Shown: piece by piece, positions 4,679 through 62,931 of the stretch
How positions within the stretch are numbered: position 1 is the stretch's first letter
Layout of the letters: every line of letters starts with the position of its first letter
Assembly: GCA_964016885.1 (NCBI GenBank)
Contig: OZ024761.1
Coordinates: 28,086,001-28,150,000, forward strand
Direction of reading: 5' to 3'
From: Eledone cirrhosa
Taxonomy: Eukaryota
DNA length: 64,000 nucleotides
Position numbers and translations under genes: made by a program
Notes under the pieces: generated by a model
Told to the model about the DNA's origin: nothing
Databases searched by the model: none
What the model saw: only the letters and a program-made list of their open reading frames with translations

Positions 4679-4713
<35 letters not shown>

Positions 4714-4829
4714 GGAACGAGTAGGACCCCATGGGGTCCTACTCGTTCCTATTACCCGCTCTACTACCCTAAGTATTGAGTACTTTGGTGCGTTATGGTC
4801 CACCTGGTTCCTTACCACATTTCCTTCGT
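4714..4829 (+). mobile_element. Fold-back family A, copy with collapsed hairpin
   Basis: ggaacgagtaggacccc-at-ggggtcctactcgttcc followed by the family tail ending catttccttcgt; (TA)n on both sides. Confidence 0.85.
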
Positions 4830-6411: not shown

Positions 6412-6415
<4 letters not shown>

Positions 6416-6545
6416 ATGGGGGCGGTAACATAGCAGTTATACCATTACTCATCAGAGTACTCGGTACTTGGTGTAGTAGATTTGGTAATAGGAAAAAATC
6501 GGGAACCCTACGGCTGAGCTCCGGCCGTTTCAACAGGTAGATTTG
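6412..6545 (-). mobile_element. Diverged family A copy
   Basis: Aligns by eye with the family A tail and keeps GAAA-CGGC-cggagcuca-GCCG-UA-ggguuccc on the minus strand; flanked by (TA)n. Confidence 0.65.
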
Positions 6546-6567
6546 TTCATATATATATATATATAAT

Positions 6568-9777: not shown

Positions 9778-10061
9778 GCGTGTATCTAATGGCGGCTATT
9801 TGTAGAATTATGAAGAGGAGAAAGTAGGAAAAAATGAAGAAGAGGGTAAGAAGGAAAGAAATAGAAGTGAGCTAAAACGACGTTAAAAAGCATAAACTCA
9901 TATCAACTGTCATTCATTGATAGACAACTTCATTTATTCCACTATATGTATTGTGTTATGTATAGAGCTTGTTATAATATGTGTTGGCCAACCAGCTCTA
10001 AAGAGATTTCAATATAACAGATTTTCTCTACCTGTGAATGTTTGTGTAGATCGCTATATAA

Positions 10062-10321
<260 letters not shown>

Positions 10322-10441
10322 GTATATATATATATATATATTATATATGTGTGTGTGTGTGTGTGTGTATGTGTTTGTGTATATATATGAAGATATGGAT
10401 ATATATATATGAATATATGAATATAGGGATACATATATGTA

Positions 10442-10522
<81 letters not shown>

Positions 10523-10554
10523 ATGTGTTTGTGTATATATATATGAAGATATGG

Positions 10555-10712
<158 letters not shown>

Positions 10713-11009
10713 GAAGATATGGATATATATGAATATATTAATATAGGGATACATATATATATGAATATATATATATATGAATATATGAATATATATATAT
10801 ATATATATATATATCAGTGTGTGTGTGTATGTCTGTGTTTGTCTGTGTATGTGTGTGCGTGTGTGTGAATTAGTTGAATAAGTGTATTAATAATATAATT
10901 GCGAGATGATGATGAATATACAGGATATATATGGTCGGAAATATTCCGTCGTTCAGAGTTACAGACACACATACAAACATATCTATCACACGCACACATA
11001 TACACACAC

Positions 11010-11095
<86 letters not shown>

Positions 11096-11386
11096 ATATA
11101 TAAATATATATACATAAATGCATATATATGTGCATATATATATGAATATGTATATATATATATATACATATACATATATAAATATGTAGATGTATATATA
11201 TACATATAAATATGTATATGTATATATATATATACATATTTATATGTATATGTATGTATATACATATATATATATATATGTATATGTATGTATGCATATA
11301 TATATGTATATGTATATATATACATATATATGTATATGTATGTATACATATATATATATATGTATATATATACATATATATATGTA

Positions 11387-11464
<78 letters not shown>

Positions 11465-11474
11465 TATATATATA

Positions 11475-11505
<31 letters not shown>

Positions 11506-11535
11506 GTGTGTACGTATATATTTAGCAATATATAA

Positions 11536-11641
<106 letters not shown>

Positions 11642-11976
11642 ATTTCTACAACCAACTATATATATAGTCAGCACATATCCAAGTATTTCTAAACGTAATC
11701 ATATCCACGGTTAATATAAATACTTTAATTTATATTTCTCTAGATCAATCTAGTTTTTCCTTCTTTTGTCTTATCTTTTTTTTATTTTTGTACATCTGCC
11801 TCTCTTTGTTTTACTTCTGTCTCTTTAGATACAGAGACACACACACACACTACACACGCACACACACACACACATATACAAACAGACACTCAAACACACA
11901 TATTCATAATTATTTGTTTATATCTACATCAGTTTCTCTCTCTTTCTCTCTCTCTCTGTATATACAGATATCTATA

Positions 11977-25370: not shown

Positions 25371-25411
25371 TTATGTCACTGTTGTAATTTATATATATAT
25401 ATATATATATA

Positions 25412-25604
25412 AGAACCAGTAAGACCCCGACAGCTGAGCTCAAGCCGTTTCGACGGCTAATTCTAGAGTCCAGAATTAGCCGTCGAAACGGCTTGAGCTC
25501 AGCTGTCGGGGTCTTACTGGTTCCTATTACCCACTCTACTACCTCAAGTATTGAGTACTTTGGTGCGTTATGGTCAACCTGGTTCCTTACCACATTTCCT
25601 TCGT
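25412..25604 (+). mobile_element. Fold-back family A (subfamily ccagtaag)
   Basis: About 55-bp arms plus tail, flanked by (TA)n. Confidence 0.9.
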
Positions 25605-29214: not shown

Positions 29215-29246
<32 letters not shown>

Positions 29247-29248
<2 letters not shown>

Positions 29249-29451
29249 AACGAGTAGGACCTCGACGGCTGAGCTCAAGCCGTTTCGACGGCTAATTCTG
29301 GACTAAAATACTTTAGTCCAGAATTAGCCGTCGAAACGGCTTGAGCTCAGCCGTCGGGGTCCTACTCGTTCCTATTACCCACTCTACTACCCTAAGTATT
29401 GAGTACTTTGGTGCGTTATGGTCCACCTGGTTCCTTACCACATTTCCTTCG

Positions 29452-29452
<1 letters not shown>
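29247..29452 (+). mobile_element. Fold-back family A, longest hairpin copy
   Basis: Arms of about 60 bp around ggactaaaatactttagtcc, then an 80-bp tail; (TA)n flanks. Confidence 0.9.
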
Positions 29453-29501
<49 letters not shown>

Positions 29502-41139: not shown

Positions 41140-41713
<574 letters not shown>

Positions 41714-49329: not shown

Positions 49330-51905
<2,576 letters not shown>

Positions 51906-52782: not shown

Positions 52783-52886
52783 ACGAAGGAAATGTGGTAA
52801 GGAAACAGGTGGACCATAACGCACCAAAGTAGTCCAGAATTAGCCGTCGAAACGGCTTGAGCTCAGCCGTCGGGGTCCTACTCGTT

Positions 52887-52888
<2 letters not shown>
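52783..52888 (-). mobile_element. Family A copy with one arm deleted
   Basis: The tail end acgaaggaaatgtgg...gcaccaaagt is joined directly to agtccagaattagccg...cgttcc. Confidence 0.85.
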
Positions 52889-52931
<43 letters not shown>

Positions 52932-54092: not shown

Positions 54093-54123
54093 ATGTAAGC
54101 TATCGACGTATTTTGATATATAT

Positions 54124-54274
54124 GGAACCAGATGGACCATAACGCACCAGAGTACTCAATACTTAGGGTAGTAGAGTGGGAAATAGGAAAAAGTATGACC
54201 CCGACGGCAGAGCTGAGTTCAGAAATAGCCGTCGAAACGGCTTGAGCTCTGCCGTCGGGGGTCATACTTTTTAC
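54124..54274 (-). mobile_element. Family A copy (subfamily aaagtatg)
   Basis: Same tail and stem III region; a sister copy is at 62793. Confidence 0.85.
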
Positions 54275-54313
<39 letters not shown>

Positions 54314-60576: not shown

Positions 60577-60577
<1 letters not shown>

Positions 60578-60762
60578 CGAAGGAAATGTGGTAAGGAACC
60601 AGGTGGACCATAACGCACCAAAGTACTCAATACTTGAGGTAGTAGAGTGGGTAATAGGAACCAGTAAGACCCCGACAGCTGAGCTCAAGCCGTTTCGACG
60701 GCTAATTCTGGACTAAATGAAAATTTATCCTGGTATTTAAATAGCCGATCTTCTCAAGGGGT
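60577..60762 (-). mobile_element. Family A copy retaining a non-palindromic 5' half with a degenerate hammerhead core
   Basis: Minus strand: ACCCC-uugagaa-gaucggcua...uagccguc-GAAA-CGGC-uugagcuca-GCUG-UC-GGGGU plus tail. Confidence 0.8.
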
Positions 60763-60791
60763 AATTCCATATATGGTCAAAGTGATTGTCA

Positions 60792-60835
<44 letters not shown>

Positions 60836-62792: not shown

Positions 62793-62931
62793 GGAAATAG
62801 AAATAGCCGTCGAAACGGCTTGAGCTCTGCCGTTGGGGTCATACTTTTTCCTATTTCCCACTCTACTACCCTAAGTATTGAGTACTCTGGTGCGTTATGG
62901 TCCATCTGGTTCCTTACCACAATTCCTTTGT
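62793..62931 (+). mobile_element. Family A copy (subfamily aaagtatg), left arm mostly deleted
   Basis: agaaatagccgtcgaaacggcttgagctctgccgttggggtc plus tail. Confidence 0.85.

Follow-up and report, generated by a model that had tools for sequence, protein, structure and literature searches.

A 3.6-kb autonomous Penelope-like element (PLE) with Hydra-clade motifs, which inserts into (TA)n, gives rise to the hairpin described here as its shortest product. Such hairpins probably form when reverse transcription is primed by the two ends of the cut target at sites close to the 5′ end of the element RNA, both cDNAs run off that end, and the cDNAs are joined. A more specific scheme is put forward tentatively, at rather less than even chances: the transcript would start inside the element's own hammerhead ribozyme, an enzyme dimer would prime both DNA ends, and a second class of copies would start at the ribozyme cut, the first in vivo trace of PLE hammerhead cleavage. 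The kind of element and the inverted-arm structure are already known. What is new are two fixed 3′ ends and two piles of 5′ ends, one at a likely start inside the ribozyme and the other at the predicted cut.

In the window (the whole stretch of 64,000 nucleotides that was analysed) the two arms of the hairpin at 29244–29375 form 64 base pairs and leave four bases unpaired (fold z −22). Positions in the element are counted backwards from the last base of the long tail (0), so that window base 29312 is −140; the short end then falls at −79 to −77, and cleavage by the hammerhead is predicted between −97 and −96. The right arm has the content given in the first-pass annotation (GAAAC-GGC-TTGAGCTCA-GCCGTC-GGGGT), and its assignment to half of a type I hammerhead of a retroelement was correct. 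The nine hairpins announced for the window were an overcount: all nine places hold the family or a relative, but only five are hairpins, namely 4714 (20 bp), 25412, 29247, 41517 and a partial one at 54124. The inverted arms of copy 52783 have no sequence in common, while 6412, 60577 and 62793 are single arms, the last with a remnant of a few bases of a second arm. The diagnostic substitution pairs of copies 25412 and 54124 are present in both arms, as had been noted. A hammerhead fold was looked for around copy 6412 and was not found; the tail of this copy carries CTGATGAG. The window also contains degenerate (TA)n tracts of kilobase length (49479–51536 and 10055–11691) and 200 N. The coordinates of all features are listed in Table 1.

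Table 1. Parts of the hairpin and other copies of the family in the window (negative numbers are element positions).
Feature	Position	Strand	Remark
(TA)n target, left side	29219..29246		
Inverted short-ended arm, −140 to −77	29244..29307	-	TAT end merges with left (TA)n
Non-templated bases (n = 4) at head-to-head junction	29308..29311		
Long-ended arm, −140 to 0: hammerhead 3′ half and tail	29312..29452	+	
Initiator-like TTAGTC inside hammerhead loop II	29313..29318	+	A at 29315 (−137) is the putative transcription start
Hammerhead 3′ half	29326..29360	+	stem II 3′ strand, GAAA, stem III with palindromic loop, GUC, stem I 3′ strand
Predicted scissile bond	between 29355 and 29356	+	−97/−96, predicted hammerhead
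Tail between the two fixed 3′ ends	29373..29452	+	continues into leader and ORF in tandem copies
(TA)n target, right side	29453..29499		
Very short hairpin copy	4711..4829	+	both arms start at predicted cleavage site, AT between
Single arm, older diverged relative	6412..6552	-	~77–79% identity over 94 nt
Hairpin copy	25409..25604	+	short arm from −132, long arm from −137 preceded by extra G
Hairpin copy	41514..41713	+	
Two inverted arms, ~−60 to 0 and −138 to −77	52783..52891		no shared sequence; not a hairpin
Two inverted arms	54121..54277		~30 nt in common
Longer single arm, −217 to 0	60577..60794	-	
Complete predicted hammerhead in copy 60577	60669–60762	-	core UUGAGAA at 60757–60751; missed in the first-pass annotation
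Single arm, −132 to 0	62799..62931	+	

Genome copies were found by pattern searches, which retrieved at least 15,798 hairpins whose arms begin in the main pile of 5′ ends and 942 of a minor class of very short hairpins. Exact matches genome-wide number 19,418 for a 35-mer of the ribozyme 3′ half, 33,439 for a 32-mer of the tail and 2,020 for the ribozyme 5′ half, figures of unequal stringency that are not copy numbers; reversed control sequences gave no exact match in the genome. The family was also found under a second species label.

Long copies are collinear, joining tail and hammerhead through ~1.35 kb of non-coding upstream sequence to a 710-aa frame, with a unit length of 3,564 nt. In tandem copies the tail leads directly into a short leader followed by the ATG. 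Exact tail–leader junctions number 289, some of them in four-unit arrays with a period of ~3.54 kb. Partial tandems that form pLTRs, an inverted 5′-truncated copy and a one-sided tail are all present, and the two-armed layout is found at kilobase scale in locus L063 (arms of 3.5 and 1.9 kb). No unbroken frame from the ATG occurs among 30 near-full-length loci, where the longest open frames have 710 and 678 aa, and a variable poly-C tract interrupts the ORF in many copies. Programmed frameshifting at the tract was rejected, its length varying in all three frames.

The protein has 402 relatives at an E value of 1e-10 or better, with no informative name among the matches listed. The reverse transcriptase (RT) motif YRDD is invariant in 109 aligned proteins, and the predicted structure (pLDDT 93) has telomerase RT (TERT) as its top Foldseek match (E 1e-8). 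The model of the C-terminal domain resembles I-TevI (Z 9.6, rmsd 2.4, 88 aligned) and two further GIY-YIG nucleases, EndoII (Z 8.0) and UvrC (Z 6.2); the nuclease motif VIY...YIG...R...E...N is conserved and lies in the same ORF as the RT. Sequence searches of Pfam and PDB did not recognise the element's own ORF, while one of its homologs matches Pfam RVT_1. The Hydra-clade motifs are RWR28 (K in 70% of homologs), DKT109-111, C564-C566-C572, C662-C665 and C690-H692; there is no CCHH motif, and a second conserved His pair inside the nuclease is absent in the aligned homologs. Judged by these motifs, the element is a new family of the known Hydra clade. A TIR DNA transposon with matching transposase, a finding that would have refuted the first-pass annotation, does not fit the asymmetric ends, the variable centres and the RT–EN parent. 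Other Penelope- or RT-like frames are located near or inside copies (L061:3291-4649, L062:956-3097, L065:2-1339, L068:6509-8200, L076:6172-7029), the one in L061 being a different Hydra-like frame that sits between two arms. At three loci (L272:2253-3365, L277:3920-5014, L274:3286-4308) the ORF part stops near 840–860 nt into the unit and in two of them a short piece from −136 or −96 follows directly, a structure that possibly reflects a template jump after run-off or an additional internal start.

The arms have two fixed 3′ ends ~79 nt apart. Inverted pairs make up 117 of 180 de-duplicated insertions, taken from the window and from loci that were selected by ribozyme or tail matches within the initial 37 Mb of contig C1; in 105 of these 117 pairs a long-ended arm is joined to a short-ended one. 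When sampling was anchored on the tail (98 of the first 100 places), 74 of 98 places had an inverted arm (73 short-ended, 1 long-ended); of the rest, 7 are long and 17 have none. Taking all 297 arms, 107 end at −77 and 134 at the long end. A common junction of the arm ends with (TA)n had been reported from the window; indeed, the short arm ends at TTCC/TAT, (TA)n is found at the end of 257 from 286 arms, as is typical of Hydra targets, and TAT follows each of the two 3′ ends within the element, matching the target. The short 3′ end also terminates ordinary long copies (6/30). In the predicted fold the tail pairs with the leader downstream, a helix that is possible only at the pLTR–ORF junction; its stability is ordinary (z −1.3) and there is no covariation. 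The suspicion that stops of long arms accumulate at the second start site found no support (3/98 in the tail-anchored sample). In L030/L076:4531-5044 three short arms with (TA)n flanks are repeated at a spacing of 207–231 nt, which looks like local duplication after insertion.

The order of ribozyme elements in long copies is ACCCC, UUGANAA, stem II with a 40-nt loop, GAAA, stem III, GUC and GGGGU, providing the core bases and three helices of a putative type I hammerhead. Pairing was scored in 31 distinct long copies drawn from two diverged groups: 88% of cells are paired, and stem II has two-sided changes between subfamilies that amount to few independent events. The core is of the U3-A8 type in 25 of the 31 copies. 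The CUGANAA subfamily has a C3-A8 mismatch, a pairing that should weaken a hammerhead. No hammerhead was present among the 150 matches listed of 439 in an Rfam search of the window, all TA-repeat noise. The proposal that the hairpin is a hammerhead that lost its core is contradicted by the long copies, including 60577, which carry the whole predicted ribozyme: the core is not lost, because short copies simply start downstream of it. The non-palindromic master copies postulated at that time do exist; their core, expected to be CUGANGA, is instead UUGANAA or CUGANAA. An older subfamily (L311–L329) has a longer stem II with the same core and ends.

Most arms begin within loop II of the hammerhead. 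The 5′ ends form their main pile at −141 to −131, where 153 of 196 arms at risk stop (0.109 per nt), while the stop rate is 0.008 per nt just below and 0.007 further up; the pile thus has ~13 times the rate just below it, itself inflated by 40 stops at −127/−126 (an unmodelled subfamily). In a wider interval, −144 to −129, lie the 5′ ends of 146 from 193 arms. The mode at −137/−136 (~22 of ~41 single arms, counted by eye) coincides with TTAGTC or TCAGTC, here a putative initiator that was recognised post hoc as fitting TYAGTY, the Drosophila initiator in which transcription begins at the A. An internal promoter within the repeat is described for the D. virilis Penelope (PMC2377424). The initiator-like motif is retained as TTAGTT in the older subfamily, whose loop is otherwise different and in which the TATA-like TATTTAAA at −166 is lost. 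From the motif and its position we infer that the main pile corresponds to a capped transcript start in loop II; a transcript starting there would be devoid of the hammerhead 5′ half. The extra G expected from a cap is a weak signal: it precedes the 5′ end at −137 in 9 of 10 free junctions, but the partner arm could explain 5 of the 9, and G is also common at −134 (6/10) and −138 (6/12).

The main rival explanation accepts the same element and two-ended priming and assigns the main pile to stalling or drop-off of the RT at a loop II structure or at a bound protein. Stalling is conceivable because the pile is 10 nt wide and coincides, in one subfamily, with a predicted loop II helix (−141 to −133 in copy 60577), and the weakness of the cap signal speaks for it as well. 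We consider it unlikely, since few stops are found at the stronger stems III and II, the distal helix is lost in the older subfamily whereas the initiator-like motif is kept, and stops drop sharply above ~−143. Two other candidates were set aside: piles at −145 and stops at −127/−126 and −85 are artefacts of the extension rule (self-complementary centres) or belong to unmodelled subfamilies, and a 3′ splice site at TTTAG/TTCAG is incompatible with the many arms that extend beyond the AG.

A minor pile of 5′ ends coincides with the predicted cut. Of 100 arms in 50 very short hairpins, sampled with a pattern that permits starts only between ~−91 and −113, 37 begin at −96, the base just after that cut. 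When only unambiguous junctions are counted 32 of 50 start there, with added bases that are mostly T or A, and 10 of the 12 arms scored at −97 come from five blunt junctions that fit −96 equally well. Copy 4714 of the window belongs to this class. In the tail-anchored sample starts at −97 to −95 are limited to 3 of 98 arms, and two near-full-length copies begin at −96/−97. The position of the pile suggests that it derives from RNA cut by the hammerhead, and arms stopping at the predicted cut likely record RNA self-cleavage in living cells.

The two arms of a pair belong to the same subfamily in 78 of 79 classified pairs (21.4 expected; 19 unclassified) and diverge by 5.0%, versus 10.7% in shuffled pairs (98 pairs). 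Rare alleles are found 76 times in one arm only and 4 times in both. The arms were therefore alike at insertion and aged separately. The earlier suggestion that the inverted arm is made from the same molecule at insertion stands as far as the common template is concerned; fold-back priming, the route then proposed, does not hold as a general one. Under that explanation the first cDNA would fold back or switch template at stem II and the inverted arm would be copied from it, which agrees with the subfamily likeness and with the microhomology common at hairpin centres. The short-ended arm, however, often has sequence missing from its partner (23/105 pairs), so it is not generally a copy of it. 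Arms share no sequence in 7 of the 105 pairs, and in 16 the short-ended arm reaches >10 nt further 5′. Moreover, the second arm stops at a fixed site, the one that also ends ordinary long copies, and some pairs differ in subfamily; with at least two such mixed pairs one RNA was not always enough. We thus regard fold-back as improbable.

Variability of hairpin centres, already seen in the window, is extensive: 49 distinct centres occur among 66, many at microhomologies and others with small losses or added bases. The commonest centre, found in L090, L163, L019, L195, L204 and L074, has the same polarity in 6/6 cases and in four subfamilies, the short-ended arm being longer and the long-ended arm starting from −131; joining of the arms may be directional. 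Transcription and re-insertion of the entire hairpin as a non-autonomous unit, or its movement as a MITE, would suit the very high copy number and the MITE-like outcome envisaged in the first-pass annotation. A family spreading as a hairpin is nevertheless at odds with so many different centres, the commonest of which recurs at a microhomology in four subfamilies, and with the lack of RNA-editing marks (none of 297 arms has more than two A-to-G changes); the ends lack symmetry, and the family is linked to an RT–EN rather than to a transposase, which makes this origin very improbable. Least credible of all, and hardly to be entertained, is that gene conversion equalised the arms once they had been inserted or that the palindromes are assembly artefacts: 24 of 98 pairs do have identical arms over the compared stretch, but the arm-specific rare alleles run against the later homogenisation once considered. 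Raw Illumina reads, from which artefactual palindromes would be absent, contain opposite-strand joints of the family at −141 to −127, and short-read contigs, which possibly come from the assembled sample, contain many different arm-to-arm joints. A read-depth step at −141 to −130 in RAD-seq reads was discarded because the read ends coincide with AATT sites, probably the restriction cut.

The preferred reading, two-ended priming followed by run-off and joining, can be formulated as a series of steps. The nuclease would cut the (TA)n target, and each cut end would serve as primer at one or other of two internal sites close to where the RNA begins. The two 3′ ends would be these internal start sites, by analogy with those shown in vitro for the anole element. 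Each cDNA would extend to the 5′ end of the RNA, which may be the transcript start or the ribozyme cut, both arms usually being templated by one RNA. The cDNAs would then be joined head to head, the variable centre arising through microhomologies, small losses or added bases. An enzyme dimer that primes at two sites near the 5′ end would turn most events into strong-stop-like hairpins, and a transcript that starts inside the hammerhead would have a 5′ end unable to self-cleave in cis. Copies of kilobase or full length would require templates of greater length, supplied by read-through RNA from tandem copies, by a circle or by a template jump; a single run-off and jump is inadequate for near-full-length copies because their upstream repeats are mostly longer than 137 nt (22 of 27 copies). 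Membership in the non-LTR retrozymes was considered and rejected, the hairpins being head-to-head with half a hammerhead each. Two head-to-tail arrays contain the tail–leader junction, one with 299-nt repeats (G000:C2:356030077-356031902, 7 junctions among those listed) and one with 257-nt repeats (G000:C1:27009635-27009923). They are possibly retrozyme-like derivatives of the hairpin's family.

The formation of tandem and inverted PLE ends and the cutting of hammerheads in vivo are posed as questions in the literature consulted. If the interpretation is right, the family keeps a genomic map of Penelope RNA ends, and RNA cut by the hammerhead is reverse transcribed. Its thousands of short copies, whose ends are precise to the base, reveal where RT starts, where the 5′ ends of the RNA probably are and how the arms are joined, so that a single protein and a single short RNA would suffice to test each step. 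Such hairpins are also liable to mis-annotation as MITEs or microRNA precursors.

Two better-known processes resemble parts of the scheme. In LINE-1 twin priming a second priming event on the same RNA leads to an inverted 5′ part, and in retroviruses priming near the RNA 5′ end yields a short run-off cDNA, the strong-stop DNA. The present family differs from both in that the two starts are fixed internal sites and the arms usually overlap, and from the retroviral case also in having no tRNA primer or integrase.

Among the Hydra-clade PLEs described by Craig et al. 2021 (PMC8557442) are a family from octopus (Hydra-1_Obim) and a copy that is inverted and 5′-truncated (Penelope-13_HM). According to this source, common traits are the RWK-type motif, DKT, the CxCX5C linker, CxxC and CxH around E and N, the C-terminal GIY-YIG, the (TA)n target and a hammerhead in the pLTR. 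The unit is 3.6 kb here versus mostly <3 kb in the clade, and the core is U3-A8 whereas every Hydra hammerhead listed there has CUGA-N-GA, both being general rather than diagnostic traits; the hammerhead sequence is unlike that of Hydra-1_Obim, and the 40-nt loop II and tens of thousands of short copies are further differences. The second conserved His pair of the published Hydra text is not found in the nuclease (PMC8557442). An inverted 5′-truncated arm with a one-sided tail is a published Penelope signature (PMC8557442; Arkhipova et al. 2013, PMC3846280). The tandem and inverted pLTR insertions of these reports share with ours the 5′-truncated copy with an adjacent inverted 5′-truncated copy, the tail at one end, palindromes at the 5′ junction, partial tandems and a putative TATA and initiator. 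Their tails measure 30–40 nt versus ~79 nt here (PMC8557442, PMC3846280), and in our family the ORF-less hairpin is the commonest product and 5′ ends lie at two sites. In the literature searched, outside which are most subscription papers and Repbase, we found no report of genomic copies whose 5′ ends map to the hammerhead site of a PLE or to a start within the ribozyme; further context is provided by a preprint (10.64898/2026.07.22.740005) and by PMC13282606.

The U3-A8 core is a published variant of PLE hammerheads, known from Schistosoma Cercyon (Cervera and de la Pena 2014, PMC4209133). The ribozymes of that study and the present one have in common the type I layout, a short stem I, a long stem II, G10.1-C11.1, a palindromic loop III, the U3-A8 core, opposite-strand pairs and an origin of most copies from truncated elements; the stem III of five pairs sets ours apart (PMC4209133). 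The cited part of PMC4209133 reports no evidence of in vivo cleavage by PLE hammerheads. The closest biochemical parallel in these sources is PAc, a Poseidon element of the green anole, for which Frangieh et al. 2024 (PMC11167929) showed that both strands are cut and extended and that internal starts match the tail, and predicted a dimer. Both systems have two internal RT starts that define a tail, an AT-rich target and a hammerhead near the pLTR–ORF junction, and the cutting and extension of both strands by PAc correspond to the two-ended priming suggested here (PMC11167929). The PAc start is reported to be non-homologous to the cut DNA, whereas both starts of our element offer a TAT that matches (TA)n. 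For PAc, RNA reads are reported not to start at the hammerhead site, while here genomic copies begin at the predicted cut (PMC11167929).
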